Below, piece by piece: positions 1,607 through 45,027 of a stretch of 64,000 nucleotides of DNA. Source of the DNA: Gemmatales bacterium (GTDB lineage: Bacteria > Planctomycetota > Planctomycetia > Gemmatales > HRBIN36); contig JANXCQ010000003.1 in assembly GCA_025060195.1 (NCBI GenBank), positions 722 through 64,721 of the forward strand, given 5' to 3'. The notes under the pieces are model-generated. The model was not told the origin of the DNA. It worked only from the letters and a program-made list of their open reading frames with translations, and did no database searches. Position 1 is the stretch's first letter, and each line of letters opens with the position of its first letter. A program made the position numbers and the translations under genes.

Positions 1607-1880
1607 GCATCTTCCTCCTTGGGCTCATGCCCGGTGAAGCGATTCGCCCCGTGTTTTCGCCAAGCCCCAGGGGATTCCCTGGAACGGCCTCGCCTTTTCC
1701 CCTTGGCGACGCACCTCGTCTTCAGCTACCTCGCAGCGCCGCCAGGACAATGGATACGTTTCCCAAGCCTGTGCCATGCGATGACAATAGCCCGACTTTT
1801 TCAAGCACAGGCAGCCAGCTTGAACACTAGGCCACAGGCCGAGCTACCCGGTTCTCGACCAAGCTGGTCGGGAGTATTTC

Positions 1881-1908
1881 ATCTTATCGGAAATCGGTTT
1901 GTCGTCAA
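1881..1908 (-). promoter_or_regulatory. Candidate sigma70-like promoter for rpsB-tsf (TTGACG-N16-TAAGAT)
   Basis: The minus strand reads TTGACG (1908-1903), a 16-nt spacer, then TAAGAT (1886-1881). This would give a leader of about 270 nt before the rpsB GTG. Sequence pattern only. Confidence 0.3.
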
Positions 1909-2753
1909 ATCGAATTAACGTGATACGCCGCTTCGTCAACGGCGGATGCCTTGTGTTTAGCTGAGCGTTCCCAGGGAACATCAGCGGTATTTGCTATAGC
2001 GAATCAAGCGCGGCTGGCAAGCGGACGATGAGGCCATTACTGCAGAACGCTGTGTCAAACTTCGACGAAGCGGGGCACGTCGGTACGCTCCTGGGTAGGC
2101 CGGTGGCTGTTGCCATGTCCGCCGTGTTAGACGTGAACTAAACGGCGCGCGTTAGTACGGTACTCCGCGAGCACAAGTAGGCACGCTGGGCGCCTGCACC
2201 AAAGTCACCCCCCGAAGCCACCCAGACCGCACTAAGTCGCGGTGGTGACCGTCCAGCCATCTGCAACACTGACCGTGCGGTGCTTCGTTAGACATGCCGC
2301 TCAACTGCGAGGCATCCGGGTACCGGCCGGGACACCATCTTGCCGCTTTCCGAGCCATCGCCCCATCGGTGCCCATCGGGCCGCGTGGGCACAATCTCGG
2401 CACCCCTAGGCAAACTCCGCGCGGCAACGCAATTTTTTATGTGTGCGGATTCGCCCCTGTTTTTACCCCCCACGGCAAGCCGAATGACCTGGTAAACTTG
2501 TTTCCTAAGTGCTGATGTGCCAAATTCTTACAATTTTTGTCTCGAACCAAGGGCGAGCGCGCGGGCATGTTGGAAAATTTGTGCAGTCCACCCCACGGCA
2601 AAATCGCGATCTTGCCGGGGTGGTGACACGCGGTTTGCCTCTGCCCCATTTCCGACCTTAGATGGAACGTTATCAACTTAGTGACATTTACCCGAATGAT
2701 TCAATTCAGCGACTTTTCCGAATACATTAGTAACATAGTCAACTTGGTGATAT

Positions 2754-2782
2754 TTGACAGACCTCCGAATTATGGCTACATT
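2754..2782 (+). promoter_or_regulatory. Candidate sigma70-like promoter (TTGACA-N17-TACATT) inside an AT-rich patch, pointing toward the tandem repeat array
   Basis: TTGACA sits at 2754-2759, followed by a 17-nt spacer and TACATT at 2777-2782. It lies in the only markedly AT-rich stretch of this region (about 2690-2900). No convincing ORF lies downstream. Confidence 0.25.
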
Positions 2783-3084
2783 TTAGCTCTGAAAAATCAT
2801 GGTATGCTCCCCGGCACCATTAGTCGGATACCCGACGGCGATTCCATTTGTTATTTTTTTTATGTCGCAAAAATCTCCCATTGGCTCGGGACGCTATATC
2901 GCTTCGCGTTTGCGATAAGCAGCCCAGGTGCGGGATGCCCAAGCGATAAAGACGATACTAGAGCGAGAGGCAGCGCCAAGAGCGCCGCAAGTTCGTTTGT
3001 GTCGTCCGGGACGCCTGACTACGAAGTCGGAACCGGAACGTTGCATCAACGCGCGTTTTTGATCCGTGCTAGGGCGAGATTTCT

Positions 3085-3390
3085 TATAGCGTAGCCTAAC
3101 GTGGCTTAGCGTAACTTGTCGTAGGCATGCAGTGTGCGAAGGGGAGAGAACACGGAAAACGCGGACGTACTTATGTCCACGACTGGTAACTTGTCGTAGG
3201 TAGGCGGTGCCCGGAGGTAAGAAAATATATAACACGCGGACGTACTTATGCGTTTATGTCTGGTAACTTCCCGTCGGGAGGCCGTGTGCGGAGGTGAGGG
3301 ACTCCATAACGCAAAGACGTACTTATGTCCACGACTGGTAACTTGTCGTAGGCAGGCGGTGCGCGGAGGGGAGTAGGGTGCGTTTGGGGC
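3085..3390. repeat. Tandem repeat, four units with a 75-77 bp period (the first unit is degenerate)
   Basis: The core GGTAACTTGTCGTAGG(C/T)AGGCGGTGC(G/C)CGGAGG recurs starting at about 3110, 3185, 3262 and 3337. The second block GACGTACTTATGTCCACGACTG recurs at 3164, 3239 (diverged) and 3316. The array ends about 8 nt from the brxL stop codon. Confidence 0.85.
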
Positions 3391-3397
3391 GGGGGGT

Positions 3398-5431
3398 TTA
3401 GGCGCTCTCGAGGGCTTTTTGCAGAGCAGCGCGGGGGTCGGAGTAGAAGATGGGGTCGATGCGTTCGACGATTTCGCTGGGCACGTCGGTGAATGCGCGT
3501 TTGTTTTCCAGGGGTAGCAAAGCGCGGCGTGCGCCGTTGTCCATGGCCACTTGGAGCGGTTCGATGAGCGAGCGTAAGGCTTTAATGGTACCTTGGATGC
3601 TCAGGTCGCCTAGCACTACCATGGCAGGTCGTACCGATTGGCGGCGCAGGGCTGAGTAAACGGCCACGACGAAGGCTACGCCGACTTCGCAGCTAGCGTG
3701 GTTCCCTAGCAGGTCAATGGCTTCGACCTGGAAATCGGTTGCGTCGAGTAGTTGGCGTATGCCGAGGAATTCCTTTTGCGTTTGCAGGTAGCTGAAGGCG
3801 CGGTCAATGGAATCCCGGAGTTTCCTGTCGGTTACGCCGACGTTGCGGAGTTTTCCGGTGCCTGCGGCACAGCCGACTTCGAGGCGGTAGAGTCCGACCT
3901 TGCCTTCGTCATCTACGGAAGCGGCATAGACCGAGCCCGGGGGTAGCGGGTCGCTGGAAATGGCCTGACAGCCGCCTTGTTCGGGAACGCCCACAAAGCG
4001 CTCCTCGCGAGTATCCTGGTCAATGAACGAGAACGAAGTTTGATGGTACTCGAAGGCGCCCATCTTTTTGAGTTGTTCTTTAACACGGCGTCGGCCTTCG
4101 AGGGCGAGTTCGAGGAGTTCCGCCAGTTCTTCTTTGGTGTATTCGCCGTGGGGATAGAGCAATTTGATCAGGCCGGAGACGGTTTTTCGCACTGCTTTGA
4201 CATCGCGTGCGTTGAGATGGCTGCCCAGGAGGAAGTAACGGTCAATGGCCTCGGTGTAGTTATGTTTGCGGAGTTCGCGTAGGGCCTCGGCCAGGTAGTC
4301 CACGACGAAGCCGTAGTGGTCGGTGAAGAATTCGACCCGCATTTTGGGAATTTCCCACCCGGGCAGGTAGAAGTGGATACGGTCGAGAAAGGCGAGGTCT
4401 TCGCGGATGACGTCGGGCATGGGCAGGAACAGGTGCGAGGTCCGTACCATGACTTCCACGGGCTGGTTGGTATTGCCGAACATGGCGATGGAGGCCATGC
4501 CTGTGAGCGAATCTTTGCCGCGGGCAAAGGTGCCGGATTCGCAGTAGGTTTTCAGAGTGGTGACGACCTCTTTGGGCATTTTTTGGAGGTCGGCGACTTC
4601 GTCGAAGGCGATGGCGTCCCAGATACCGACCAAGCCGATGCGGTTGGTGGCGATGTTATAAAACAGGTTGGCGACGGTGGTGGGGCCGGTGAGCAGGATG
4701 GCGTAGGGCGAGAGTTCCTGATAGGCGTAACTTTTGCCGGTGCCGCGTGGCCCGAGTTCGACCAGATTGTAGTTGCGTTCGCATAGGGGTATGAGGCGAA
4801 CGAGCAGGAGCATCTTGACCCGGCGGGAGAACTGGCTCGATTCCAGGCCCATGGTGCGGATCAGGAGGTCGAGCCATTCGTCGGTGGTGAAATGGCGGCG
4901 GTTTTGGCGGTATTCTTCGAGGTCGAAGGTGGCGATTTGGATCGGCTTGAGTTCATCAATCCAGAATGGGCTGCGTTTGGCCGGGCCGTGCGCTTCTGCG
5001 TCGTACTGATGGCGAAGTTCAATTTGGGCCCAGATGCCGCCTACCAGCAGCCGGTCGTATTTGCGGATGTAGTGGTCGGGAATGTGGACGTAGCGGTGGC
5101 CGAAGTTTTTCAGTTCCGCCCAGTATTTGTCGTCGTCGGAGACATAACGGACTTGGACTTTGTCAATGAAGGTGTGTCGGCCCTTGTCGCGGACGAGCGC
5201 CTGGGCTTTATTCGATTCGTCGGGCCGGACGTAGTGGGAGGCGAGGGTATTGTGCACGACGCGCATGCCTGCCTCGATAGCCACAGGGTCGTTCGTGGCG
5301 CAGTATTTTCCCAGTAGATATTCCAGCACGAACACGGGAACGTTGGCCCCGACTTTGACCTTGCGAACCAGGTCTTTGCGAACGACTTTACCGGGGAAGA
5401 CTTCGCTGACCTTTTGATCCAGTTCCGACAT
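3398..5431 (-). CDS. brxL: BREX Lon-like protease BrxL
   Basis: The intact 677-aa ORF begins MSELDQKVSEVFPGKVVRKDLVRKVKVGANVPVFVLEYLLGKYCA..., with an AAA-like core (ELGPRGTGKSY) and a Lon-protease-like C-terminus. It is the last gene of the BREX operon, starting 9 nt after the pglZ stop. Confidence 0.88.
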   Translation of the reverse strand: MSELDQKVSEVFPGKVVRKDLVRKVKVGANVPVFVLEYLLGKYCATNDPVAIEAGMRVVHNTLASHYVRPDESNKAQALVRDKGRHTFIDKVQVRYVSDDDKYWAELKNFGHRYVHIPDHYIRKYDRLLVGGIWAQIELRHQYDAEAHGPAKRSPFWIDELKPIQIATFDLEEYRQNRRHFTTDEWLDLLIRTMGLESSQFSRRVKMLLLVRLIPLCERNYNLVELGPRGTGKSYAYQELSPYAILLTGPTTVANLFYNIATNRIGLVGIWDAIAFDEVADLQKMPKEVVTTLKTYCESGTFARGKDSLTGMASIAMFGNTNQPVEVMVRTSHLFLPMPDVIREDLAFLDRIHFYLPGWEIPKMRVEFFTDHYGFVVDYLAEALRELRKHNYTEAIDRYFLLGSHLNARDVKAVRKTVSGLIKLLYPHGEYTKEELAELLELALEGRRRVKEQLKKMGAFEYHQTSFSFIDQDTREERFVGVPEQGGCQAISSDPLPPGSVYAASVDDEGKVGLYRLEVGCAAGTGKLRNVGVTDRKLRDSIDRAFSYLQTQKEFLGIRQLLDATDFQVEAIDLLGNHASCEVGVAFVVAVYSALRRQSVRPAMVVLGDLSIQGTIKALRSLIEPLQVAMDNGARRALLPLENKRAFTDVPSEIVERIDPIFYSDPRAALQKALESA

Positions 5432-5440
5432 GGCGGACTC

Positions 5441-6493
5441 CTAGATGGCAATGGCGACCTCGACGGTCAACGGGGTGGCCAGTTCCACGTGGGTGGCGCT
5501 ATCCACCAGGTGGATCGTGGCCGTGGGTTGGTTGATGTCTTCTTCGAGCATCAGGGCGATGGTGTTGGGTTCAACTTGTTGCGGATCGGCGTCGGAGAAT
5601 TTCAGGTGGACGTCGCCTGTCGCGTCGTCGAAGCCATACGAAGCGCTCACTGGTCGGGACACTACTTTTCGACCGGCGCGGATTTCGACGCGCACCTGGG
5701 GGAGTTCGGCGCCGAAGAGGCTGGATTCGGTCGCCTGGCCGGAAACGCGGACGGAGAAGAACCGCGTGGTGATCTTGGCGGCGCCGGGGGTAAGTGTCCA
5801 GGCCATGGGGCAGAATCGCGGACGTGGCTTTGCCTTGGCCGTTACTGTCAGTACCGGGATGATCATTTCCTGGGGCGAGACCCCGCCGTGGAAGTAAGCC
5901 CGATTGCCGCTTTTACAGCGAAACACGGCAAAGCCTTTGGGCGTGGCGAATTCCAGGTCGGTTTCCAGGCCGAAGCTCTGTAACGGTACGCGCCACGAGG
6001 ACGGTGCCGAAGTGCCGGCGGAACCGAGCCAAAGGCGCCGCCGCAAGTTGACCGTGGAGCCTGCGGGAGGCTCGATTTTCATGGGCTCGGTGGTTTCGTC
6101 GGCGAAAAGGTAACCGTGGTCGGCGGTGAGGATGATGATGGTGAATCCGTGCTCGACCAGGATACGGACGACGCGCCGCAGCTGAGCCAGCAAGGCGTTC
6201 ATATGCAGACGGGCTTGGGCGATGTTATCGGTTTCGCCCAGTTCGTCAATTTCCTGCGAGGTAACTACCAGGAGCGTTGCCTGGGCCAGGTCTTGTTCCC
6301 GGCGTTTATTCGGTTTGGGCAACAGTTGTTCCAATTTACAATCCCGCACGTTGCAGGACACGCGTTCGCGGATATACTGGAGACGGTCTTTACGGTCTGC
6401 GATGACTCGTGCGCCGATTTTCACGCCAAGGCGACCGTCCTTGAGCGCGACCAACCCCAGGGATTGGTGCGCTTCGGGCAGCAAGGCGGCCAT
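5441..6493 (-). CDS. pglZ: PglZ, C-terminal fragment (PglZ/alkaline-phosphatase-like domain remainder), separated from the N-terminal fragment by an in-frame TAA
   Basis: It starts MAALLPEAHQSLG... and contains LTADHGYLF (the DHG metal-ligand motif). It is in the same frame as ORF 6500-8032, since both end coordinates are 1 mod 3. Confidence 0.85.
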   Translation of the reverse strand: MAALLPEAHQSLGLVALKDGRLGVKIGARVIADRKDRLQYIRERVSCNVRDCKLEQLLPKPNKRREQDLAQATLLVVTSQEIDELGETDNIAQARLHMNALLAQLRRVVRILVEHGFTIIILTADHGYLFADETTEPMKIEPPAGSTVNLRRRLWLGSAGTSAPSSWRVPLQSFGLETDLEFATPKGFAVFRCKSGNRAYFHGGVSPQEMIIPVLTVTAKAKPRPRFCPMAWTLTPGAAKITTRFFSVRVSGQATESSLFGAELPQVRVEIRAGRKVVSRPVSASYGFDDATGDVHLKFSDADPQQVEPNTIALMLEEDINQPTATIHLVDSATHVELATPLTVEVAIAI

Positions 6494-6499
6494 ACCGAC

Positions 6500-8032
6500 T
6501 TAGGTGACCGTGGGCACGGTGGCCAAGGCGGGACGCAGTTCGACTTGGAAATCGTTTTCGAGCAAGCGGGCCAGTTCCCGTCCCATCTCGAACCGCAGGG
6601 CATCCACCCAGACGTAAGCGACTTTCTGGCCGCTTTGCAGGTGGGGTTTGACGACTTTTTCGAAAATTTCGCGTTGCTGGAGCAACGCCTTGGCGGGGAA
6701 TCTGGTCTTGTGGAGCAGGTCGAAGAACAGTTCGGCCAGCTTGGTGCCGACGGTTTCATACTCCTGGCGGGCCCGCGTGGTCAGTTTGTGCAGTTGGTCG
6801 TAGTCGTCCTCGGCGGTAAACTCGAGGTTATGGCGGCGTTGTTCGAGGTGGCGGTGACAGGTATCGAGGAGGCACCAGGGTTGGTCGGAGGCGGCGTAGG
6901 CGTGCACCAGTTCGGCGAGGCTGGACGGCGGCGATTGGAGTTGTTGGCGGATGTGGTCGGCGCAGAGAAGTAGTTCGGCGGCCACGGCTACCAACGCCCA
7001 ATACGCCTGGAGGGTCGGTTCCACTTCGGCCCAGAAACGCGAAAGCCGCCGCTGCGCTAACTCCAGCAGCTCGCGCCGCGGGCCTTCGAGCAGTTGTTGT
7101 TCGGCGTATTGGAGCAGGACTTTGTCCAGCACGGGGAAGGTTTCCAAGTGCTGACAGGCAAGCGCGGGCAGGGGGAGCCGGTGCAGTTGATACTGTTGTT
7201 CGACCTGGCGGGCCCAGGCGCTATAGCTGTCGCGATATTCCCGTTGATTCCGCCAGGCCTGGGCCAAGCGCAGACAGGCATCCCGGGCCAGCGGATTCTG
7301 GGCCACGGGCACGGAAGCTAACGTGGACGGCCAACTCTCCTTCAGACCGTGATACAGTTCGCTGAGCAACACATGGCGCGCGAAGTGTTCCCGTAACATG
7401 GTCAGCGAGACGCCGTCGCGCACCGACAGTTGGAATCGTTCGCCCAGCATCTCGCGCAGTGGTTGGACAAGTCGTTTTTCCTCGAGAGCGGCGTCGTATT
7501 TGTCGCTGGCGACGAAACGCAGGGCGACTTCCTCGGCGTCGTCGCTGCCGAAGACCGACTTGAGCAAGGCGGAGAGCGGTTTGTGGGGTGCAGCCAGGGC
7601 GTCCAGGAAAGCCAGGTCGAGTTGCTGCTGGTCGAGGCGTTCGAGCACCGCGGCCAGGTCTTTGTCGGGGAGCATGCCTTGCAACACCCGCCGGGCGAGC
7701 ACGCTGGGGCGCGTGTTGTGGGTCAGCGACGGATGCCCCGGACGCAACACGGTGCCCGCGGCTTCCAACTCAACCAGGGCATGGTGCGTATCGGCCGGGT
7801 CGCACGGTACGTACACCAGCAAGCGGGGCGGTTGTTCGTCGTTGAGCAAGGGGTCCACTTCGTAGCGCAGTTGGAAAAAGCTGTTGTTGCAGGTTACGAT
7901 CTTGGCGTCGGGCAGCGTTAGCTGGTCAACTACGGGACGATAGAACCCCTGGGGGTCGTACCAGACGACGATCCCATGCTTGTCGAGCAGTTCGGCGAGC
8001 AACTTGGTGACGTAGTCGCTGACGGCACCCAT
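6500..8032 (-). CDS. pglZ: PglZ, N-terminal fragment, ending at an in-frame TAA (6500-6502)
   Basis: It begins MGAVSDYVTKLLAELLDKHGIVVWYDPQGFY... and ends ...VAYVWVDALRFEMGRELARLL...ATVPTVT*. Reading across the stop gives TVPTVT*VGMAALLP, the conserved PxxT..GMAALLP segment of PglZ. Confidence 0.85.
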   Translation of the reverse strand: MGAVSDYVTKLLAELLDKHGIVVWYDPQGFYRPVVDQLTLPDAKIVTCNNSFFQLRYEVDPLLNDEQPPRLLVYVPCDPADTHHALVELEAAGTVLRPGHPSLTHNTRPSVLARRVLQGMLPDKDLAAVLERLDQQQLDLAFLDALAAPHKPLSALLKSVFGSDDAEEVALRFVASDKYDAALEEKRLVQPLREMLGERFQLSVRDGVSLTMLREHFARHVLLSELYHGLKESWPSTLASVPVAQNPLARDACLRLAQAWRNQREYRDSYSAWARQVEQQYQLHRLPLPALACQHLETFPVLDKVLLQYAEQQLLEGPRRELLELAQRRLSRFWAEVEPTLQAYWALVAVAAELLLCADHIRQQLQSPPSSLAELVHAYAASDQPWCLLDTCHRHLEQRRHNLEFTAEDDYDQLHKLTTRARQEYETVGTKLAELFFDLLHKTRFPAKALLQQREIFEKVVKPHLQSGQKVAYVWVDALRFEMGRELARLLENDFQVELRPALATVPTVT

Positions 8033-8069: not shown

Positions 8070-11000
8070 TTACGGCGTGGCGCGGACCAGGCCTTTTTGC
8101 CGCAATTGCTGGGCGATGGACGACCACGGATACTTCCCCGCGAGCAATTCGTCCCAATATTTTTTGGCTTCCTTCCAAGGGACGAGTTCCCACAAATGGG
8201 CGATGGTGAGCACGACGCCGTCATCGCGGTCGGGGCGCAGCTGCAAGCGGGCGGCACGCTGCAATTTGTCGGCGAAGTCGCGCAGTTCGCTGAGCAAGTC
8301 TTGCTGGCGTTCCAGGTCGCGGTCCAGCCGCTTACTGACGTTGCCCGCGGCCTGGGCCTTTTGTTGTTGCAAGGCGGCGAGGCGATTTTCCTCCCGGCGG
8401 ATTTTCGGTTCGACGTAATGCAGCCTCGCTTTAAACAGCAGGTCCTCGTCGAGCTGGTGATAGTAAAGCCACAGGGCGAAGTTCCCTTTAGAAGATTGTA
8501 GCAGCCAGTAAATCGGGGCTTTGCGTCGGCTTTTGGAATAGCGGGCGAGGTGGTCGTGCCAGAAACCGCCCGGGCCGGCGCGACGGAAATATTCCCGCAG
8601 GTCGCGCACGCCCAGGGCGCGGCAGGCTTCCTGTTCGACCTGTTCGGCGGCGTCGCCCCAGAGCAGGTCAAAGACGTCGCGGACGCGGCGGACGATGTCG
8701 TCGGTATGTTCGGGGTCGTCCACCAGGATGCCGTTCCACTGAATGGCCAGCGGATAGCCGGGCGGTGTTTCGCTCAACGGCAGACCGTCTTCTCCCTGGA
8801 GCATCCCCGGCGGACACACCGGCAGCGGGTCAAACGGATCGGGCAACGGCGGCGCTGCTTTCTCCCCCGTCGCATACCGCACATCCCACCGCCCAAACAC
8901 ACACCCCACCGCGTAAGAGATAACTTCCCGTGCTCGTTTTGCCCGATCGTCTAGCTGTTTCTCGTCGCTCGCATCGCCATTATCATCATCAAACCAGCCT
9001 TGATTATGCACGGCGACAGTTATGGACAAAGCTTCCAATTGAGCTCGCTCTTGCTCGTTCAAGCCGTAGGCTTCGTAAATAATGTCGTCAATCAGTTGGG
9101 ACGGCTTACTCGGGGGCTCAGGACGAGTTTGGTAGGAGGTAAACTCGTGTGCAGTCTCGTCGTAGTTTTTGTATAGTGCGAACTTATAACACTTTTGAGC
9201 CTCCGCAACGAGAATACTCGAATACTTTCGAAGATCTGGGTAGGGGACGATTCCCAATACTCCAACTTCATAAGATTTGGCGATCATGGAAGTGCCAACA
9301 ATTAAGTCCACTAAGCAGCTAAAAGCGGATGAATTCATGAACGCTAAGGCAAGCCATAAATCCGTCTCGTTGGTGGCAAAACCGCCGCTGCCTTTGACCG
9401 AAATTATCGCTCCCGCATTGAGCACTCTCGGCCCGAACCTTTTCGAGGTGCGTTCACTCCATGTCAATCCTGGGCGAAAGTAGTAATCGGTGTTTCGAAG
9501 GCATGAATAGGGGCGTCCCGTCTCGGGGTCTCTGAAATTCCTAATTTCCTCCCCGTCGCGTTCCCAATTGATGACGAGGTGTAAGTCGGCGTAAAAGGGA
9601 CTATACTCGCCGCCCTTGGCGAAGGGCACCCAGCGTTTGCCTTCGAAGGTGCGCTGGCGGCACCATTGTTGAAAGGCCTTGAGGTCGCGGCGCCAATCGG
9701 GACCGTGGCGGGCATCGAGGATCTTCTGCGGGTCCACTTCCCACCAACAGCGAACGAAGCGAAAATCGTCGGCGGTTTGGAGCCCGACGCGCACGGTGCG
9801 GCCTTCGCTCTGGAACGGGGGCAGTTCGCGGAACAAGCGACGAATCCGCTCGGAGACCCAATAGGCGAACGGGCTGCCCGGGACCAGGCGAAATTGCTCA
9901 GGCGCCACCGGGAAGACGTCGGGGTGAGGCTGGTCGGCGAGGTAAGCGGCCCGGGCCTGGGCCAACGCCTCCGCTTTGTTCTCATGGTGCAACATGCGGA
10001 AAAACACGGTCGGCGCCGCGGACGGTGCGGCGGACGGAGTCGCTTTGGCCAAACAGTAGGCGGCAGTTTCGACCATGGCGGTGTCGAGCACGCCATAGCC
10101 CAGGTCGGCCACCACCAGGAGCCGCGCTTCCCGTAATAAAACTTCTTCCCGCCATTTCTGGAAACTGGAGAGGAAAAATCCAGTGCGGCTGGTCAGGGCG
10201 CCCAGCAGTCCGTCCGGGAGCAGACGCCGTAACGCCATTTCCACAAACGCCGCATACAGGTTATGTTTACTCCGCGGATAAGCCCGTTCCAGATAGGCCT
10301 TGAGCGCTATGGGATAGTCGCCATAGGGCGGATTCATCAGGATGACGTCGTAGCGCTGGTGGCACAATTCGACGAAAGCCAGTCCCTGGGCGGTATCCTC
10401 GGCAAAGAGCCGGCGCTGCAGACCGCGTCCGTTATCGGCCCGCTGAGCATGGGCGCGTAAGGCGGCGACGACGCGCTGCTCGGCTTGTTCAAAGAACTGG
10501 GCATCGGACAAAGCGCTCACGGCAAAGAGCCGCGGCGGCTCGGAATCCGGGGCGTCGAACATCGTCCGCTGCCACGCCCCGCCCCCCGCGAGGAATTGCC
10601 GATGCGCTTCCTGGACGGCGTCGCGGAGGTCGTCCTCGATGAGTAACAGCGGCCCCGCTTCTCCGGCCAGTTGCATCTTGTCGAACACCACTTCGACCAA
10701 CTGGCCCAACAGCTGCGGCTCCAGGCTGGCCACGAACTCGCGGAGCAACTGGCGCTCGCCCGGCATCGGTTCGGCACATACGAGATGGGAACGGGTAATC
10801 TTGGGCCGCTCGCCACTTAGGCCGAATTGCCGATACGCCCGCTGACACCGCAGCCATAACGCCAACGCCGCCACCTGAATCGCCCGCGGATCGATATCCA
10901 GGCCGTAAAGATTCTCCGCCAGGATGAGCCGGGGCAGGTCGCGATACAGCGCCGACTTGTCGGGATAGTCGCGGCGAAGAGCGGGGCCCAGGTCGGGGTC

Positions 11001-11654
11001 GTCGTGGGCCTCGTCGTAAATGTCCAACAGCAGGTCGAAGCAGTAAAGCAGGAAATGGCCGCTGCCGCACGCCGGGTCGAGGATTTTCCAGAGCCGCGGA
11101 TCCTTTTTCGGTCGCCAAGCCGACGGCGAACGGTCGGGCACGAGATAGCGGCAGCGCTCGGTCAGGCGTGTCGCCCCGTGGCGCATTTCGTACCACAATC
11201 GGCCCAGCGTGTTATCCACGAGAAACTCGACCACATAGCGGGGCGTGTAAAACTGATTGCGAAAGGCCAGTTCGTAGGCGTTGCGCGGGGCGCGACTTTC
11301 CTGGCGTGCCTGGGTGCGTAGTTCCGTGGGCGTGAAATACTGATAGACCCAGCCGAGGGTTTCGTCATGGTGCCAGACGTCGGCCAAGGCGGGGTCGTTG
11401 AGACAGGCGAGCACCTGGTCGAGAGCCCGCTGCGGCGGATACAGCCGATTGGCCGGATCGTGCGGACTGAAGAGCACGCCGATCTCTTCCGCCAGCCGCT
11501 GCGCCAGCCAGTCGAGGAAATGGCGGTAGGCGAGTTCGTGCTGGCCCGCATAAAACAGCGCGATGCGCCTCGGGATGCTCGGCGAGGTAAAGCTGAAAGC
11601 CTTCGGAATAGACGCCGCGACTGACCGCTTCGCGAAAACGCTGCCCGCCGACAT
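8070..11654 (-). CDS. pglX: BREX methyltransferase PglX (paralogue 2), main fragment downstream of a frameshift
   Basis: Family-like sequence starts around 11570 (RRIALFYAGQHELAYRHFLDWLAQ...). It carries WVYQYFTP, FYTPRYVVEFLVDNTLGRLW, the SAM motif KILDPACGSGHFLLYCF and catalytic DVILMNPPYG. The BREX-PglX C-terminus reads PIYWLLQSSKGNFALWLYYHQL...VVLTIAHLWELVPWK. Confidence 0.88.
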   Translation of the reverse strand: MSAGSVFAKRSVAASIPKAFSFTSPSIPRRIALFYAGQHELAYRHFLDWLAQRLAEEIGVLFSPHDPANRLYPPQRALDQVLACLNDPALADVWHHDETLGWVYQYFTPTELRTQARQESRAPRNAYELAFRNQFYTPRYVVEFLVDNTLGRLWYEMRHGATRLTERCRYLVPDRSPSAWRPKKDPRLWKILDPACGSGHFLLYCFDLLLDIYDEAHDDPDLGPALRRDYPDKSALYRDLPRLILAENLYGLDIDPRAIQVAALALWLRCQRAYRQFGLSGERPKITRSHLVCAEPMPGERQLLREFVASLEPQLLGQLVEVVFDKMQLAGEAGPLLLIEDDLRDAVQEAHRQFLAGGGAWQRTMFDAPDSEPPRLFAVSALSDAQFFEQAEQRVVAALRAHAQRADNGRGLQRRLFAEDTAQGLAFVELCHQRYDVILMNPPYGDYPIALKAYLERAYPRSKHNLYAAFVEMALRRLLPDGLLGALTSRTGFFLSSFQKWREEVLLREARLLVVADLGYGVLDTAMVETAAYCLAKATPSAAPSAAPTVFFRMLHHENKAEALAQARAAYLADQPHPDVFPVAPEQFRLVPGSPFAYWVSERIRRLFRELPPFQSEGRTVRVGLQTADDFRFVRCWWEVDPQKILDARHGPDWRRDLKAFQQWCRQRTFEGKRWVPFAKGGEYSPFYADLHLVINWERDGEEIRNFRDPETGRPYSCLRNTDYYFRPGLTWSERTSKRFGPRVLNAGAIISVKGSGGFATNETDLWLALAFMNSSAFSCLVDLIVGTSMIAKSYEVGVLGIVPYPDLRKYSSILVAEAQKCYKFALYKNYDETAHEFTSYQTRPEPPSKPSQLIDDIIYEAYGLNEQERAQLEALSITVAVHNQGWFDDDNGDASDEKQLDDRAKRAREVISYAVGCVFGRWDVRYATGEKAAPPLPDPFDPLPVCPPGMLQGEDGLPLSETPPGYPLAIQWNGILVDDPEHTDDIVRRVRDVFDLLWGDAAEQVEQEACRALGVRDLREYFRRAGPGGFWHDHLARYSKSRRKAPIYWLLQSSKGNFALWLYYHQLDEDLLFKARLHYVEPKIRREENRLAALQQQKAQAAGNVSKRLDRDLERQQDLLSELRDFADKLQRAARLQLRPDRDDGVVLTIAHLWELVPWKEAKKYWDELLAGKYPWSSIAQQLRQKGLVRATP

Positions 11655-11982: not shown

Positions 11983-14187
11983 CTACTCCACGATCACAGT
12001 GCATCCCTGGTCGAGATGGCGTTGCACCGTGCGGCGGAGCTGGTCGAGGAAGGCCTCGAGGTCGTGGGACGATTGGAGCCGGCGGGGTACCAGGTCGGCG
12101 AGGCGTACCCGCACCTCGCGTGTCGTCGGCGTTTCAGGCGTCAGGCATGCGCGGAGCCGTTCCAGGACCTGGTCGCGAAACCCGCGCACTGCGGCCAGGT
12201 CGGATTCCAATTGCTCTAGCGAAGTGCGTGCGGGGCGCACGCCTTGGGCGACGTCGGCACGTTCCTGGTCGCGGCCCAGACGTTCGCGGAGCGCTTGTAC
12301 CATTCGTTCGGCCTGGAGACAGTCGCGTTGGGCCAGGGCCTGGTAGTCGGCGTGGTTTTGAATGTGTTCGAGGGCCTCGCGATAGGCAGCGGCGCGGCGG
12401 TCAAACAGATCGAGAAACACGCGCTGGTACGTTTGCCAAAGCCGCTCGGTGTGCTCCTGAAGCACGTCCCATTGCTCCAGGACGCGCTCGGATTGGAGGA
12501 GGTCCTCTAACTTGCGGACGCCGGCTTGCAGCGGTGCGGCCTCGTCGCGGCGAGCCAACTGCGGCCAAATCTGCTCGACGGCCAGGCGGGCCCGCTGGAA
12601 AGTTTGTAAGTGAGCCTCGGTGAATTGGTCGCGGTAGCGCCGCAGTTCGCGGTGCAGATGCAGCAGATGTTGGCCGTGTTCGTCGAGCAGACGCACGCGG
12701 TCTTCCCCCGAGGCGTCGCTCATCCGCCGCAACAGTTGCGCGTAGTCGTCGAGCCGGCGGGCGATCGGCAGCCGGTATTGGTTGACCTGGAGGCGCAGTT
12801 GCATCAGCTGGTCGAGCGTTTCCTGAGCGAACTGCTTGGCCACGGTGGCGATGTGCGTTTCCTCGGCCCGCACTTCCTGGCCCGTGAGATGCTCCAGGAC
12901 TTGCGCCGTCTGTTTGAGCACCTGCACGTCGAGGGAGCGCCGCGGGATAAACGCGGCCTGGCGGAAATACGACGGCTTGGCAAACAGGTTCACGGCCATG
13001 GGATCGTGGGCCTCGGTGAGGCGTTGGCAGCTGGCGAGCACCTCGATTTTGCGGGCGCGGAACAACGTGGCCAGCACCAAGCGGACAATCTCGGGGTCCC
13101 AGCCATAGGGCGGTCGGCGGAAATGTTGTTCCACCTCCTTGCCCAGCAACTTCTCGCGGTTGCCGTAGCTATGTTCCGTTTCCAGGTAGCCGAGCACTTC
13201 CTTGACCAGCGGGGCCGACATGTCCAGGACGAAGTGGCCTTCTTGCTGCTTGACCAGTGCGGCCTGGGCGTCGAGCGCCCGTAACACGTGGGCGACGTCC
13301 CGCAGGTCGTGGGCCTGGAGAATCCGCTCCACCTCCGTGCCGCTGGGTTGGAACGTGGCCAGGCTCAGCTGCGGATAAATGCGGGGCACTGCGGCGGCGA
13401 GTAACCGTTTGAGCTTTTCGGAGAAACTTTTGCTCGCGGTGCCGGCGTCGTGGACCCCGCCGGGATCCTGCACGCCGCGAAACATCCCGCTCCCCTGGCT
13501 TAGCGCTTCGCTCAACTTGGTGCGCAGTTGCTGGGCCAGGTTATCCAGACGGTTCTTTTCCTCCTGGAGCAAGGCGGCTTCGACCGGGCTGAGTTGCTTC
13601 TGCGCCCGTTGTTCTTCGTAGGTTTGCACCATGCGCTGCGAGGCGTAATATTCGGCGATGAGGCGATCGATCTCCGGCGTCAGGCAGAAGACCCAGAAGA
13701 CGGCCTGTTCACGGGCGCGCTCGCGGCTTTCTTGGCGGACTTCCTCGACGCGGGTACTGAAGGCGTCGAGGTCGTCGGCCACGGCCAGGTGCAGTTCCAG
13801 TTCCCCTTCCTCGAGGAGCGGCGTATCCTCCAGCTGCACGCGGAGACGGAAGCTCCGCAGGTTCTGATAGCGATACGTTTTCAGCTCCGGTTCGCTGAAG
13901 ATGTCGCGGAGGAAGTTGCGTAACACTTCCCGCCGGTCGCGTTGCCGGGGTTCGAGATATTCCGCGCGTTTCCGTTCCCAGGTTTTTTCCTGAGCGGTCT
14001 GGAGTTTCCATCCTTCGTCGGTCTGGCGGATGAACTGGCCCTGGCTCAGGCGTTGCAGCGCCGCCTCGACTTCGCGCGCGGGCTTATTCTGCCCCACAGC
14101 ATCCACGAGGAAGGCCGCGATATTGGCAGCGGTCCGGGGAAGGTCGCGGACGAACTCCAACAGACAGATCACCTTGGCCACGCGCAA
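11983..14187 (-). CDS. brxC: BrxC (PglY-like ATPase), C-terminal fragment downstream of an in-frame TAG
   Basis: This 734-aa fragment is in the same frame as 14257-15666 (both 0 mod 3). Reading across the stop gives ...VYDLVEDNLS*ERRHDLDQIRERLSLDPQDQGWSLRVAKVICLLEFVRDLPRT.... It is a long helical region typical of the BrxC C-terminal half. Its stop lies 3 nt before the pglX start. Confidence 0.82.
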   Translation of the reverse strand: MRVAKVICLLEFVRDLPRTAANIAAFLVDAVGQNKPAREVEAALQRLSQGQFIRQTDEGWKLQTAQEKTWERKRAEYLEPRQRDRREVLRNFLRDIFSEPELKTYRYQNLRSFRLRVQLEDTPLLEEGELELHLAVADDLDAFSTRVEEVRQESRERAREQAVFWVFCLTPEIDRLIAEYYASQRMVQTYEEQRAQKQLSPVEAALLQEEKNRLDNLAQQLRTKLSEALSQGSGMFRGVQDPGGVHDAGTASKSFSEKLKRLLAAAVPRIYPQLSLATFQPSGTEVERILQAHDLRDVAHVLRALDAQAALVKQQEGHFVLDMSAPLVKEVLGYLETEHSYGNREKLLGKEVEQHFRRPPYGWDPEIVRLVLATLFRARKIEVLASCQRLTEAHDPMAVNLFAKPSYFRQAAFIPRRSLDVQVLKQTAQVLEHLTGQEVRAEETHIATVAKQFAQETLDQLMQLRLQVNQYRLPIARRLDDYAQLLRRMSDASGEDRVRLLDEHGQHLLHLHRELRRYRDQFTEAHLQTFQRARLAVEQIWPQLARRDEAAPLQAGVRKLEDLLQSERVLEQWDVLQEHTERLWQTYQRVFLDLFDRRAAAYREALEHIQNHADYQALAQRDCLQAERMVQALRERLGRDQERADVAQGVRPARTSLEQLESDLAAVRGFRDQVLERLRACLTPETPTTREVRVRLADLVPRRLQSSHDLEAFLDQLRRTVQRHLDQGCTVIVE

Positions 14188-14256
14188 CGACCAGCCCTGA
14201 TCCTGCGGGTCGAGGCTGAGCCGTTCCCGAATCTGATCCAGGTCGTGCCGACGTTC

Positions 14257-15666
14257 CTACGAAAGGTTGTCTTCGACCAGGTCGTACACCTTGTCGAGCG
14301 TGACCAGCGCGCCGATGGGCTTTTGGGCGTAGTTGGTGCGTTCGTGCACGAGCATTTCGTAGGTTTGTTTGATGATGGTGCGGTTACTGCCGCCCAGGTG
14401 CCGCGATTCGCCCAACTGTTGCCGCAATCCCGACATGATGCTGATGCACAGATCAATGTAATGCGGTGGATAGGGATAAAAGTGGGCGAACTCATCGGCG
14501 CTGAGATGGGTGTGCCGCGTGGTGCGTTCCAGGCTCAGCGCCTCATGGAGCACGCCTTCATGCTGGCGGAACAGCTCGCGCAACAGATGCTCCCCCTCGG
14601 GTTTCTTGGCCAGCACTCGTTTCGACGCCACTTCGCGAATGTCCGAAGGCGGCAAGTCCACGCGGATGCTGAAGCGGTCTTGCAACTTGGCCAATTCGAC
14701 CCGCCGCGCATCTAACGACGACACCACCTCGTCGAGCTTCTCCTGCGAGGTCACGATGATCCAGCACGGGGCGGGAATTTTGCCTTGTTTGACGAGATTT
14801 CTGCCCACCCGGCCAAACTCTTCAACGGTGGCGCGGAGGTCTTCGATTCTCTCCTCGCTGGTGGCGACGTGTTGGCCCACTTCGTCAATGATGAACACCA
14901 AAGCCTGTCCGGGGCGGCGCCGGCCCCATAACTCAAAAGTCCGTTGCACGATCTTACTGACCGAAAGCGGTTCGCGGCGTTGGCCGTGGACTTGGGCCCA
15001 GGAATCGGCCGTGGGGTACGTTTTCGGATCGAGCCGATGCAGGATGCTGCTGGTGCGGGCCAGGCGTTGCGCCCCTTTGCGGACGCGGCGCCACGGTTGC
15101 TGGTGCAACTCCAGACACAGCTGCTCCAACTCGGCCAGGCGACCTTCCGCTTCCAGTTCGATTTCCAGTTCGGCGAGGTCGAAATCCTCGGCGTAATCGA
15201 GTTCGCGGAGCAACACACGGTACATGATTTCCGCGATGCGTTGCGTCGCCAGGCGGGTGTCGCGTTCCTTGGCCACGTCGAAGAAGATCACCCCCGTACG
15301 CCACCGGGCATGGATATTATCCAACAGGTCGGCCAGTTCCGGGTCGTCCATGCGCTCTTTGAACCACTCGGCAAAGGGGCGCCCGCGGATGCGGGGATTG
15401 TGCAGAGCGTAGCCGAGATTCTTGACGAACGAGCTTTTGCCCGAGCCGAAGAAGCCCGAAACCCACACGCCGATCCCTTCGCGCAGTTCGCTCGGCGCCT
15501 CGGCCATGGCCCCGAGCAATTGCCGATAGTGCGCTCGGATACTCGGCGTGGCCACATACTCCATGATTTCCTGATAGACCGACTCCTCATCGGCCTGATC
15601 CACTTGGATGATTTCCTGGATTTTGCGAGACAGGTCGCGGGCGATGATTTCGCCGATGGTCTTCAT
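14257..15666 (-). CDS. brxC: BrxC (PglY-like P-loop ATPase), N-terminal fragment, ending at an in-frame TAG (14257-14259)
   Basis: The true start is the ATG at 15666 (MKTIGEIIARDLSRKIQEIIQVDQADEESVYQEIMEYVATPSIRAHY...). Walker A is GFFGSGKSSF. Its ATG overlaps the TGA of the upstream gene (ATGA at 15663-15666). The 721-aa ORF-track entry 14257..16422 is an artefactual upstream extension. Confidence 0.85.
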   Translation of the reverse strand: MKTIGEIIARDLSRKIQEIIQVDQADEESVYQEIMEYVATPSIRAHYRQLLGAMAEAPSELREGIGVWVSGFFGSGKSSFVKNLGYALHNPRIRGRPFAEWFKERMDDPELADLLDNIHARWRTGVIFFDVAKERDTRLATQRIAEIMYRVLLRELDYAEDFDLAELEIELEAEGRLAELEQLCLELHQQPWRRVRKGAQRLARTSSILHRLDPKTYPTADSWAQVHGQRREPLSVSKIVQRTFELWGRRRPGQALVFIIDEVGQHVATSEERIEDLRATVEEFGRVGRNLVKQGKIPAPCWIIVTSQEKLDEVVSSLDARRVELAKLQDRFSIRVDLPPSDIREVASKRVLAKKPEGEHLLRELFRQHEGVLHEALSLERTTRHTHLSADEFAHFYPYPPHYIDLCISIMSGLRQQLGESRHLGGSNRTIIKQTYEMLVHERTNYAQKPIGALVTLDKVYDLVEDNLS

Positions 15667-16646
15667 GCGGACAACCCCCGATGCAGTTGCCGACTCAGGC
15701 TCGACCATGAATAGTGTCCCTGGAGCAGTTGCTGCCAATATTTTTTGGCGTCGGGGAAGGGCACCAGTTCCCACAGCGGTGCCAGGTTCAGCGCCACGCC
15801 GTCGTTGATATCCGGCACCAGGCGCAGTTCCGCGACGCGCCGCAGCTTCTGCTGAAAGTCGCGCAGTTCTTCGAGGCGTTCCAGTTGGTTTTCGATGTCC
15901 TGGGCGAGTCGTTTGGCTTCGCGGGGCAGTCGGGAGCGGCTCTCGCGGGGCGGCAGCGTTGTGGTGCTGCCAGCGCTGGCGCTGCCGGCGTGCGACGCCT
16001 GCCACGCCGCAAAACGGGCCCGCAGTTCGGCCAAGCGCTTTTCTTCCCAGCGGCACCGCGGTTCCACCACCTTGTGCAGCACCTTGAAGAGCGTGTCCTG
16101 GTCGTAGCGTCGGGCAAAGAGCCACACGCCGAAGTTTTTCCGCCCCGACAGCAGCAACCAGTAGATCGGGCGCTTGCGATATTGCGACAGAGGGCGTTTG
16201 AAAAACGGCAGGGCCAGGTCGTCGGCCAGACGGTCGAGCACCGGACCCGGGCCACACGCCTCCGTGACTATAACTTCCGCCGCGGCTTCGCCGTGACGCC
16301 CTTCCAGGACGCGCCACACCGCTTCGGCCAGGGGACGACCCGCTTCGCAAAAGGCTTCCGCTTCCAGGACGCGGCCGACGGCCCAACTGAGCCACGCCTG
16401 GGCCAAACGCGTCCGGGTCCACGCCGCGGGAGGCGCCTCCGCTTCCTCGCTCGGTTCGTCCTCGGGCTCGGCGTCGTCATCGGCCGCGGGACGCGCCGCT
16501 AATTCCGCCTCGATGGCCCGACGGTCGCTCTCCGAGATGCCGTAGAGCCGATACACTTCCTCGTCGATTTCCCATTCGATTTCCGCCAACTGGCGATGGC
16601 GCTCGGCCACACGCTCCACGCCGTCAGGCCAAGCCGGCGGTTCCAC
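15663..16646 (-). CDS. PglX-like methyltransferase (paralogue 1, pglX'), C-terminal fragment after an in-frame TAG
   Basis: The fragment contains ...EWEIDEEVYRLYGISESDRRAIEAEL...PIYWLLLSGRKNFGVWLFARRYDQDTLFKVLHKVVEP...INDGVALNLAPLWELVPFPDAKKYW. This matches the PglX paralogue 2 C-terminus block for block. It shares the frame (2 mod 3) with 16680-17114 and 17163-19448. Confidence 0.85.
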   Translation of the reverse strand: MEPPAWPDGVERVAERHRQLAEIEWEIDEEVYRLYGISESDRRAIEAELAARPAADDDAEPEDEPSEEAEAPPAAWTRTRLAQAWLSWAVGRVLEAEAFCEAGRPLAEAVWRVLEGRHGEAAAEVIVTEACGPGPVLDRLADDLALPFFKRPLSQYRKRPIYWLLLSGRKNFGVWLFARRYDQDTLFKVLHKVVEPRCRWEEKRLAELRARFAAWQASHAGSASAGSTTTLPPRESRSRLPREAKRLAQDIENQLERLEELRDFQQKLRRVAELRLVPDINDGVALNLAPLWELVPFPDAKKYWQQLLQGHYSWSSLSRQLHRGLSA

Positions 16647-16679: not shown

Positions 16680-17114
16680 CTACTTCGCTAACTCAATCGC
16701 TTGCTCCACCAAACGCTCCAGCTTCTCGCTCGACTGCTGCGGTATCGGCAACCGCGATAGATCCCCGACTTGAGTATTTACTGTCGGATTAACCAAGGTG
16801 ATCAGGTGATAGAACATACTGCTATTCATGACACCAAGTATTTGTGGAACATTGTCGGCAAATAGCCCTGCAGTTGCGTCGGCAAAAATAAAGCCCTCGG
16901 GCATCAGTCTAGCACTGAATCGGCTCGAGCTGACCTTGGGACACGTGATGCCGCGGCGGAAGTAGTGTTCCGTGTTCCTAACTACCCATTCCCACTTTCC
17001 GTCTAGGTATGAATAACGTTCGCAAACATAAGCTTTGATTTCGGCGCCGTCGTTTTCCCAATTCACGACATATTCCTGATTGCCATACCATCGGCGAAAC
17101 CTGCCACCTTTCAT
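16680..17114 (-). CDS. PglX-like methyltransferase (paralogue 1), middle fragment between an in-frame TGA and an in-frame TAG
   Basis: MKGGRFRRWYGNQEYVVNWENDGAEIKAY...NTEHYFRRGITC... aligns with paralogue 2 FAKGGEYSPFYADLHLVINWERDGEEIRNF...NTDYYFRPGLTW. It ends at the TAG at 16680-16682. Confidence 0.85.
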   Translation of the reverse strand: MKGGRFRRWYGNQEYVVNWENDGAEIKAYVCERYSYLDGKWEWVVRNTEHYFRRGITCPKVSSSRFSARLMPEGFIFADATAGLFADNVPQILGVMNSSMFYHLITLVNPTVNTQVGDLSRLPIPQQSSEKLERLVEQAIELAK

Positions 17115-17162
17115 GTAGGGGAACCAGCGTTTTTTCGACTGTTTGGCTTCCTCGGCGTTTTT

Positions 17163-19448: not shown

Positions 19449-19465
19449 TTGCGCGTCCCTGAGCG

Positions 19466-20053
19466 TTACCCGTAGATTTTCACGCGATAATTGCCCCAGG
19501 CCAGGCGGTCTTTCAGGTTCATGAGGCGCAGTCCAAAAGTGCCTTCGCGGGAACCGGGGTAGAACAAGACGGTGGGCACCTGCGTGCGGCCGTGGAGTTC
19601 GTCGAGCAACTTCGACACGGGATACAGCCCGGGCGCCAACGCCGCGACGCGGGTCAGAAACACAATGTCGCGGGCAGGATGCAGACCACTGTAGTGGCTG
19701 AGCACTAAGTCGGCCAACGGACACCAATCGCGATCCGAGAGATAACAGGTCACCTGCTCCTGGGCTGGGAGAAAGCCCCATTGGCGTTCCAATTGCACCA
19801 GGGCATCGAGTCCCTCGGACTGGGCGATGGCCTGCCAGAGCAAATCGGACATCCGCACCACGTGCACGGTTTTCTGCGCCGCTTCCAGGCGCGTCTGGAG
19901 CAACCGGAGTTCGCGCCGCAGCTGCCATTCCTCGCTCGGATCGTAGCGCAGAATGGCAAAGGGGAGATCGTGACAGACAGCAATCCGCGGAGGCACCGCT
20001 TTCAGGTCATCTTCCAGGAGCTTGAGCCGCTCGCTCAACGAGGACATGGGCAT
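19466..20053 (-). CDS. brxB: BREX protein BrxB (DUF1788 family)
   Basis: The intact 195-aa ORF has ...PFAILRYDPSEEWQLRRELRLL...VLFYPGSREGTFGLRLMNL...GNYRVKIYG, the typical size and C-terminal YPG...NYR signature of DUF1788. It is the second gene of the operon. Confidence 0.8.
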   Translation of the reverse strand: MPMSSLSERLKLLEDDLKAVPPRIAVCHDLPFAILRYDPSEEWQLRRELRLLQTRLEAAQKTVHVVRMSDLLWQAIAQSEGLDALVQLERQWGFLPAQEQVTCYLSDRDWCPLADLVLSHYSGLHPARDIVFLTRVAALAPGLYPVSKLLDELHGRTQVPTVLFYPGSREGTFGLRLMNLKDRLAWGNYRVKIYG

Positions 20054-20843
20054 ATTCCTCCAGGCTCGTCGCGGGGAACGTCAGACGCACGACACTGCCC
20101 GCGGCGTAATATTCGAGATAGCCTTCCTGATGGGCGGCAAAGAAGGCCCGTTCCACCGCATCGGGCGTCAGGAAAAACAGTTGCCAATCGGGCCGCCGTA
20201 CCAGCTGCGCCACAGCGCGATGCCGCTGGTGCAGGTAATAGGCGATGTAGGCAAAAGCCGCCAAAGGTAAATACGCCGGTTGCAGCCGTTTCTTGTTCAC
20301 CCCCTGCAGTATGCCGAAATCGCGGAGCGCCGCTAACAGTCCTTGGGCGACGCGGCGCAACGTGTATTCCGACCAGGGCCGCACCATTCGCCCCTGAGCG
20401 ACCCAGGCACGCAGCGGGCCAAGCAAATCACCCACGCTCACCTCGACCAGGCCGCATTGCGCCTGCGGTAACAGCACATGACGCACCACGTCGGCGACTA
20501 AGGGGTCGGCCTGAGCGGTGTGGAAAAACAAAATGCGGTCGAGCGCCGTCGCGGGGAGCCTCCCTTGCACCAGGATCACCAGAGCCGGCAAGACCGACGG
20601 TTCGACCAAATAGCGTTGGCGAAACACGCTCAGGATGTGCCGCAGCCGTGCCCGCGACGATTTGCCCAGCCAGTTTTGCCGCAGCACGCATTCCAGATTG
20701 GCTTGCGGACTTCGCGTCTTGTCCCAGTGCAACAGGATCGCTTTGGTCTCGGCGAGCAAGGAGCCGGCCTTGATGATTTTGCACGAATACGGCCTTTGGG
20801 CATCCTCGTGGGCGCGACGGCGCCGAGAGACTCGTGGCGGCAT
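20007..20843 (-). CDS. brxA: BREX protein BrxA (DUF1819 family)
   Basis: I chose the ATG at 20843 (MPPRVSRRRRAHEDAQRPYSCKIIKAGSLLAETKAILLHWD...), with GGAGG about 15 nt upstream. The DUF1819-like pattern includes ...PWSEYTLRRVAQGLLAALRDFGIL.... The gene overlaps brxB by 47 nt. The longer ORF-track version (to 21125) is an upstream extension. Confidence 0.72.
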   Translation of the reverse strand: MPPRVSRRRRAHEDAQRPYSCKIIKAGSLLAETKAILLHWDKTRSPQANLECVLRQNWLGKSSRARLRHILSVFRQRYLVEPSVLPALVILVQGRLPATALDRILFFHTAQADPLVADVVRHVLLPQAQCGLVEVSVGDLLGPLRAWVAQGRMVRPWSEYTLRRVAQGLLAALRDFGILQGVNKKRLQPAYLPLAAFAYIAYYLHQRHRAVAQLVRRPDWQLFFLTPDAVERAFFAAHQEGYLEYYAAGSVVRLTFPATSLEEYAHVLVERAAQAPGR

Positions 20844-21087
20844 GGTCGCTTCGACTTTGTACCTCCAAGGAAACCGCGCAGGCGAGTCGGGGCAAGCCAG
20901 TTCGCCATACCTGCGGGGATAGGACGTTCTACGGAGAAAACGCGGTGCGGAGCAGAGCCTGCTGTCGCGATGTTCCCGACTAGCGCGACGCGGCGGAAAC
21001 ATTATTATCGACGTCCATACTGCAGGCCTGTCCCACGCCGCGGCTTGCGCGTTCCGCCCAAGCAGCCAGCGAAGTGTTTCCGATCCG

Positions 21088-30394: not shown

Positions 30395-30540
30395 ACGTGC
30401 ACCTCCCTCGGCCTTACCGGGCACGTCAACTATTATGGTAAACCTTGCAAGGCAGGACAACCGTTCGCCGCGCCTTAGGTAGGCTCAGAAAAGCTCACCA
30501 CATGGGCAAACGGGTCAGTCAAGTGGGTGCCTGCGGCAGA

Positions 30541-45021: not shown

Positions 45022-45027
45022 GGCCTA

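Follow-up and report, generated by a model that had tools for sequence, protein, structure and literature searches.

A BREX type 1 operon ends with brxL, and immediately downstream of that gene lies a non-coding array of four head-to-tail units of 75–77 bp each, at positions 3099–3376 of the window (the whole 64,000-nucleotide, or 64-kb, stretch of DNA from an uncultured Gemmatales planctomycete analysed here). The array is a confirmed, real tandem repeat, and it is most likely a bacterial intergenic tandem repeat, an orphan minisatellite. We consider it reasonably probable that this minisatellite is lineage-specific and presumably neutral, that it arose by slippage or unequal recombination, and that it serves at most as the 3′ UTR or termination zone of brxL.

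Architecture of the four-unit array

The initial annotation had described a four-unit tandem repeat of about 76 bp, and Tandem Repeats Finder (TRF), repeat finding and a profile built from the units agreed with it in both period and phase. TRF called 3111–3373 with a period of 75, 3.5 copies, 73% matches and a score of 277; repeat finding returned four copies with spacings of 75, 77 and 75, a period that is therefore not a constant multiple of 3; and the profile HMM placed the units at 3099–3162, 3164–3237, 3239–3313 and 3317–3376. An 18-nt core, CTGGTAACTTGTCGTAGG, occurred four times at no more than three mismatches, against 0.04 occurrences expected by chance. Alignment of the units runs over the whole unit length, with pairwise identities of 62–78% and indels, and the blocks GTAACTT, CGT.GG and ACGT are invariant in all four. 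Furthermore, the match fraction was higher at a lag of 152 (0.596) than at a lag of 75 (0.475), revealing a 2 × 2 higher-order repeat. Repeat homology stops at 3376 on one side; on the other, no signal of the 75/77 periodicity was found left of 3099, so the array does not extend leftward of about that position.

The four units differ in how much of the pattern they retain. Unit 1 (3099–3163) is partial: it keeps an intact right half, but only a degenerate version of the left motif (TAACGTGGCTTAG vs GACGTACTTATG) and nothing of the 11-nt left hairpin arm, in keeping with the earlier description of a unit reduced to its 3′ half. Unit 2 (3164–3239) carries an intact 53-nt core, GACGTACTTATGTCCACGACTGGTAACTTGTCGTAGGYAGGCGGTGCSCGGAGG, at 3164–3216, with an inverted repeat (CCACGAC at 3177–3183 and the GTCGTGG-complement at 3193–3199) that gives a 7-bp hairpin on the minus strand. 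Unit 3 (3240–3315), which had been described as diverged, is indeed diverged and is also 2 nt longer; the 7-bp hairpin is gone and a small plus-strand hairpin, CUUCCC-GUC-GGGAGG, is found at 3267–3281. Unit 4 (3316–3376) holds the core at 3316–3368, followed by flanking sequence in place of the variable tail. The array is separated from the brxL stop codon by a G-rich, non-repeat spacer of 21 nt (3377–3397); with homology ending at 3376, the distance of about 8 nt originally given between the array and the last BREX gene has to be corrected to this value.

Conservation within the 152-bp period is uneven. The cores of units 2 and 4 are identical at 51 of 53 positions (96%), which substantiates the near-identity claimed for these two units over that stretch, whereas the neighbouring segments (3111–3163 vs 3263–3315) agree at 34 of 53 (64%), a contrast with a Fisher p value of 4e-5. 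The inter-unit tails of approximately 20 nt are diverged homologues, with units 1 and 2 identical at 12 of 21 positions by a by-eye count. There are accordingly no unique spacers, and the initial annotation was right that this is not a CRISPR array. CRISPR arrays are likewise periodic direct repeats near defence genes, but they consist of conserved repeats of 23–47 nt and unique spacers of similar length, whereas the segments between cores are homologous here; the period and repeat length are also wrong for such an array, and no cas genes were found by Pfam among the main ORFs of the 64-kb window.

The array did not arise in assembly: two independent k=31 contigs (run SRR15826899) enter it from opposite sides, those of brxL and rpsB, carry unit-4-specific and unit-1-specific bases, and reproduce the unit 1/unit 2 side and the unit 4/brxL side base for base. 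Each contig ends 30 nt into a 37-nt stretch common to units 2 and 4 (contig L002 ends at 3323 and contig L004 starts at 3193). These breaks follow from the identity that units 2 and 4 share there, and the array accounts for short-read assemblies of this organism breaking directly after brxL. That the breaks fall inside the array could be taken to suggest a loop collapsed or expanded by the assembler, but all four units differ, each junction is unique, and the assembled order is the sole walk that uses all junctions, with uncertainty confined to the copy number of the inner loop. We regard an artefact as scarcely conceivable; the inner unit-2/unit-3 loop could have a higher copy number than assembled. 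The MAG and the SRR15826899 contig differ at four single bases (5650, 10367, 10922 and 13121) over 12.1 kb of the BREX operon, none of them in the covered parts of the array; these differences represent strain-level variation in the sample.

The BREX locus and the rpsB–brxL spacer

Pfam matches to BrxL_N, BrxL_ATPase and Lon_C on 3398–5431 (minus) supported the placement of the array after brxL, whose stop codon occupies 3398–3400. The BREX type 1 operon extends from there up to brxA at about 20843–21125. Within it, pglZ (5441–8032, minus) is one frame with a single in-frame TAA at codon 511 (about 6500–6502, motif PTVT*VGMAALLP), and brxC (11983–16422, minus) is one frame with a single in-frame TAG at codon 722 (about 14257–14259). 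Both genes are split to the same sizes in an independent short-read assembly, pglZ into 510 + 350 aa, and the N-terminal part of brxC is also split by gene callers. Without readthrough of the two stops, the BREX system probably does not function.

In addition to the full-length pglX (8070–11654), an extra, incomplete pglX lies between brxB and brxC at 16680–19928 (minus), in two ORFs and without the C-terminal part: the ORF at 17163–19928 corresponds to positions 5–690 of the 1174 in the PglX profile, and the ORF at 16680–17114 to positions 710–851. A second BREX locus or a specificity swap may have left this extra gene behind. Decay of the host locus is evident in the stops in pglZ and brxC and the extra truncated pglX, and this fits relaxed constraint; in a defence island that is decaying, neutral repeat growth beside the final gene is unsurprising.

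BrxL itself is highly conserved and has no close relative here, its best match being 80% identical. Matches at about this level come from several phyla, and the island was therefore acquired horizontally. In the region that encodes the closest BrxL, another gene begins 23 nt past brxL. The association of the array with BREX implied by its position was not upheld elsewhere: no array follows brxL in four other BREX loci, and the array is therefore not a BREX component. The spacers downstream of brxL in the Isosphaeraceae and Planctomicrobium loci contained no tandem repeat and no unit match, and a full-text literature search for repeats after brxL found nothing.

On the left of the array, rpsB (842–1606) and tsf lie on the same strand as the BREX operon. 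The NCBI record has no gene calls in 1607–3397, the 1.8 kb between rpsB and brxL, and the ORFs of this interval, on both strands, gave no Pfam or PADLOC matches. The sole gene called in the spacer, from a short-read contig, is a 132-aa ORF within 2681–3094 without a homologue. A hidden gene in the form of the 137-aa ORF at 2681–3094 was rejected, its only matches among 1.84 billion representatives being its own copy and one low-complexity protein.

The part of the spacer between the long rpsB upstream region and the array (2660–3098) is non-coding and AT-richer (47–53% GC), and contains a plus-strand promoter-like site at 2754–2782 (10/12 matches) and terminator-like hairpins at 3039–3060 (plus) and 2891–2876 (minus). 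The promoter-like site had been noted in the initial annotation and is present, but the convergent transcription of the array proposed from it was not supported: the region holds two promoter-like sites against 0.9 expected, and the terminator-like hairpin at 3039–3060 intervenes between site and array on the same strand. A structured RNA at 2788–3062, from the promoter-like site to the array, was also rejected, with no significant fold on either the plus strand (z = −1.47) or the minus strand (z = −0.59). In the AT-richer patch at 2660–2790 (47–49% GC), inspection by eye picked out three similar 17-nt motifs (TCAACTTAGTGACATTT, about 2672; TCAATTCAGCGACTTTT, about 2700; TCAACTTGGTGATATTT, about 2740), and the third of them adjoins the promoter-like site. 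A short-read contig from a second sample (SRR15826900) ends at 2663. As evidence of an island boundary this end is weak, the contig being only 3 kb with its other end in the adjacent rpsB–tsf pair, so that low coverage is as likely a cause as a strain boundary.

In Gemmatales relatives whose RpsB is 85–90% identical, BREX is absent and another gene lies upstream of rpsB; all that they have in common with the window is a 110-nt element located 200–310 nt upstream of rpsB. To judge from this comparison, the array is not ancestral intergenic sequence of the rpsB region. The shared element (approximately 110 nt, 1806–1916) is 78% identical to the equivalent position in another Gemmatales MAG (L010, 6338–6448); it holds a promoter-like site at 1908–1881 (minus) and an 11-bp hairpin at 1851–1875, and has no Rfam match. 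The relatives also have 860–890 nt of non-coding DNA upstream of rpsB, and the element could be a promoter from which rpsB is transcribed with a long leader.

Related copies, RNA structure and candidate functions

We searched for the unit beyond the array. A degenerate pattern fitting all four units gave two isolated matches among 185,579 species-representative genomes (one genome per species), in a Chitinophagaceae MAG and a Porphyromonas MAG, where about one match is expected by chance by our own estimate; in both, the similarity did not extend past the pattern. Two patterns representing the right and left unit halves had 0 matches in JGI metagenome contigs, and two patterns had 0 matches in viral contigs. 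Blastn of 2640–3400 against plasmids and phages returned nothing, and the unit profile had no match over the fetched comparison loci. Within this genome, no further unit copy was found on either strand of the window and of 9 kb beyond its left edge (about 73 kb).

The initial annotation had not recognised the unit as a known element, and neither did Rfam, which gave 0 matches on the window at the gathering threshold and one chance-level match at E < 10, to a human lncRNA model (E = 6.9). ARAGORN found 0 tRNA genes in the 64-kb window. This includes tRNA-Sec, despite the adjacent selB and selA genes (selenocysteine elongation factor and synthase) at 43078–46455 (plus). A tRNA-derived or att-site array, suggested by the 76-bp period, was rejected, with no tRNA, Rfam match, integrase or border repeat in evidence: Pfam and ORF scans of the window revealed no integrase, and the longest direct match between 2400–3400 and 20700–21400 was 10 bp (E = 0.5). 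The recombination scar at the island border that had been offered as one possible role is likewise unsupported, with no att-like repeat at the other BREX border. Elsewhere in the window, a tandem repeat of 12/24/36 nt (56693–56775, consensus GGTTGGTGCACCGGCTGGTGCAACGGCTGGTGTGCG) lies inside an ORF without a Pfam match (56610–57287), and is presumably a coding peptide repeat.

Could the array be the visible cluster of a dispersed REP/BIME/MITE-like family, spread genome-wide in this Gemmatales species and unrelated to BREX? The genome coverage of our search, about 73 kb, leaves space for such a family, and short-read contigs break off at the array, as is usual at repeats. Those breaks, however, are fully accounted for by the identity of units 2 and 4; the covered part of the genome held no second copy on either strand; the units have neither terminal inverted repeats nor target duplications; and no match was present in the loci of relatives or in any collection scanned. 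We therefore give the dispersed family, which the initial annotation had named as the alternative, a slim chance.

RNA folding was evaluated on both strands. The whole array folded no better than dinucleotide shuffles (z = +0.78 and +0.40 on the two strands), and no single unit on either strand was better than its shuffles (z from −0.97 to +0.89). The 7-bp hairpin with one G.U pair that the initial annotation had proposed for the BREX-sense strand is part of the minimum-energy folds of units 2 and 4, but a function based on it was not supported: it is found in 2 of the 4 units only, and there is no fold excess over shuffles on either strand. Units 1 and 3 lack the 7-bp hairpin, and RNAalifold found no helix common to the units on the BREX-sense strand. 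The plus strand has a 6-bp hairpin with a 3-base loop, CUUGUC-GUA-GGCAGG, that is common to the units (3190–3204, 3267–3281 and 3342–3356) and, because of its G.U pairs, is specific to the strand antisense to BREX. The unit 3 variant, CUUCCC-GUC-GGGAGG, keeps its pairing through one G-C to C-G double change and one change from wobble to Watson-Crick; with four sequences, this is no more than a hint.

The composition of the array is strongly skewed. Its plus strand contains 112 G and 61 C, a skew of 0.295 that places it among the highest 0.8% of 313-nt windows, the skew being a property of one unit copied four times and not four independent observations. The BREX-sense strand has a C/G ratio of 1.84, so that RNA from it would be unstructured, rich in C and poor in G, a composition known from Rho loading (rut) sites. 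At the unit 2/unit 1 junction an intrinsic-terminator-like site was found at 3181–3160 (minus), with a 7-bp stem, CGTGGAC/GTCCGCG, containing five G-C pairs and one G.U pair and with UUUUCC behind it; the 5′ arm of this stem and the 3′ arm of the 7-bp hairpin overlap. The site is the only one of its kind inside the array, among 6 terminator-like sites in the region (2.3 ± 1.7 expected).

These features allow the proposal that the array is a selected 3′ end element of the BREX operon, its minus-strand RNA acting as a terminator or mRNA stabiliser: the C-rich tract would load Rho, the junction hairpin and U-run would terminate transcription, and the hairpins of units 2 and 4 would block 3′ exonucleases. 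The array is well placed for this, 21 nt past the brxL stop codon and read on the sense strand; the rut-like composition comes without excess structure, the terminator-like site lies on the appropriate strand (minus), the hairpin present in the folds of units 2 and 4 belongs to the core conserved at 96%, and Rho is encoded in relatives. Like rut regions and intrinsic terminators, the array stands just past the last stop codon, with a C-rich, G-poor, weakly structured sense RNA and one hairpin followed by a U-run. Rut sites, however, are not normally tandem repeats, and termination within the array is here predicted from sequence only. Moreover, units 1 and 3 lack the hairpin and the fold energies equal those of shuffles, terminator-like sites exceed expectation in the region as a whole with only one of them within the array, the skew was copied with the unit and is hence not independent, nothing comparable exists at the other BREX loci, and the operon to be served has nonsense codons itself. 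We hold such an element to be unlikely, with an appreciable residual probability.

A DNA array that binds protein, iteron-like or centromere-like in the manner of sopC, appears improbable. A dimeric protein might bind each good unit at CACGAC-N9-GTCGTR, which is an inverted repeat, or at direct half-sites, GTAcTTatGTC and GTAACTTGTC. Evenly spaced direct repeats, some with a short inverted repeat, are indeed what sopC centromeres and iteron arrays look like, and the regular 75–77 bp spacing, the inverted repeat in units 2 and 4 with its 96% conserved 53-nt core and the invariant blocks GTAACTT, CGT.GG and ACGT all agree with this proposal. The known arrays, however, adjoin parAB/sopAB or rep and have the palindrome in every unit, whereas the palindrome here has been lost from two of the four. 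No replication, partition, recombinase or regulator gene adjoins the array, the sole ParA-like gene being about 25 kb away (28847–30460), and no ORF of 1607–3397 has a homologue; the iterons suggested in the initial annotation thus find no partner. Nor was an extra copy of the core present near the BREX promoter or elsewhere in the window.

Even less probable, in our assessment, is a repetitive regulatory RNA, either an antitoxin array of the type III toxin-antitoxin kind or a tandem sRNA or protein-sponge RNA, possibly read from the plus strand, antisense to the end of brxL. The resemblance lies in direct, non-coding tandem repeats in a phage-defence setting, which recall ToxI, CptI and TenpI; GGAGG occurs 4 times against 0.7 expected, unit 3 retains its small plus-strand hairpin via a double change, and a plus-strand promoter-like site is located upstream. 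The known antitoxin arrays differ, however, in having units of 34–45 nt and pseudoknots and in standing directly upstream of a same-strand toxin gene of the ToxN/AbiQ family, none of which applies here. The present unit is twice as long, without an internal half-period; no toxin gene lies on either side; there is no structure signal and there are no homologues; and the terminator-like site at 3039–3060 precedes the array on the plus strand. The enrichment of GGA is mild (10 vs 6.6 ± 1.9 expected), and the copies are not independent. A type III toxin-antitoxin system proper was rejected on the missing toxin ORF, the unit of 75–77 nt and the absent fold signal, with brxL on the strand opposite to a plus-strand reading. 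A CsrA/RsmA sponge was rejected on the same GGA count and on 0 occurrences of AGGA. Mini-ORFs in the units (MSTTGNLS*, seen by eye in units 2 and 4) were dismissed as well: the frame is lost in unit 3, and GGAGG lies about 29 nt upstream, too far for an RBS.

Origin and meaning of the array

We return to the neutral minisatellite. On this account, a piece of about 76 bp from the spacer after brxL would have been duplicated through replication slippage or unequal recombination; the two copies would have diverged, the resulting pair of 152 bp would then have been duplicated, and the copies would have decayed ever since. The near-identical cores of units 2 and 4 would be put down most simply to a short, recent patch of conversion or duplication. 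The array would have no dedicated sequence-specific function. Should transcription read through past the brxL stop codon, the array would form the 3′ untranslated region of the operon, and its C-rich, G-poor, poorly structured RNA, together with the unit 2/1 junction hairpin and U-run, might make it a zone where transcription ends.

The neutral reading draws its support from the minisatellite-type architecture, the lack of relatives, of structural constraint and of a partner gene, and the decaying host locus. A tandem unit within the 10–100 bp range, beyond chance, was found in a non-coding location, as in minisatellites. The array likewise resembles bacterial VNTR loci (e.g., those of the MIRU type, 40–100 bp) in its intergenic head-to-tail units, imperfect copies, small indels and higher-order duplication, and furthermore in having no coding capacity, being species-specific and breaking short-read assemblies. 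It differs from MIRU-type units, which are scattered over many loci of one genome and often coupled in translation to the neighbouring genes, in having one known locus in one resolved assembly.

Some observations sit less easily with neutrality. The uneven conservation (51/53 vs 34/53) is not predicted by a single neutral block duplication, and it fits selection on the core no less than a conversion patch; unit 3 retains the plus-strand hairpin through the G-C to C-G double change; and neutrality is argued from absence, with about 73 kb of the genome covered. There is accordingly a small chance that the 53-nt core is a selected cis element of an undescribed kind at the 3′ end of the BREX operon, and the array a duplicated functional module rather than junk. 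Such a core might be a docking site for a protein, an RNA module for termination or stability of the brxL message, or an antisense transcript.

As a probably neutral minisatellite, the array has little general meaning for BREX, since it is not common to other BREX loci. It could be of practical use as a strain marker, if its copy number varies. If it is true that the core is selected, the array would give a first clue to a new cis element located where a defence operon ends.
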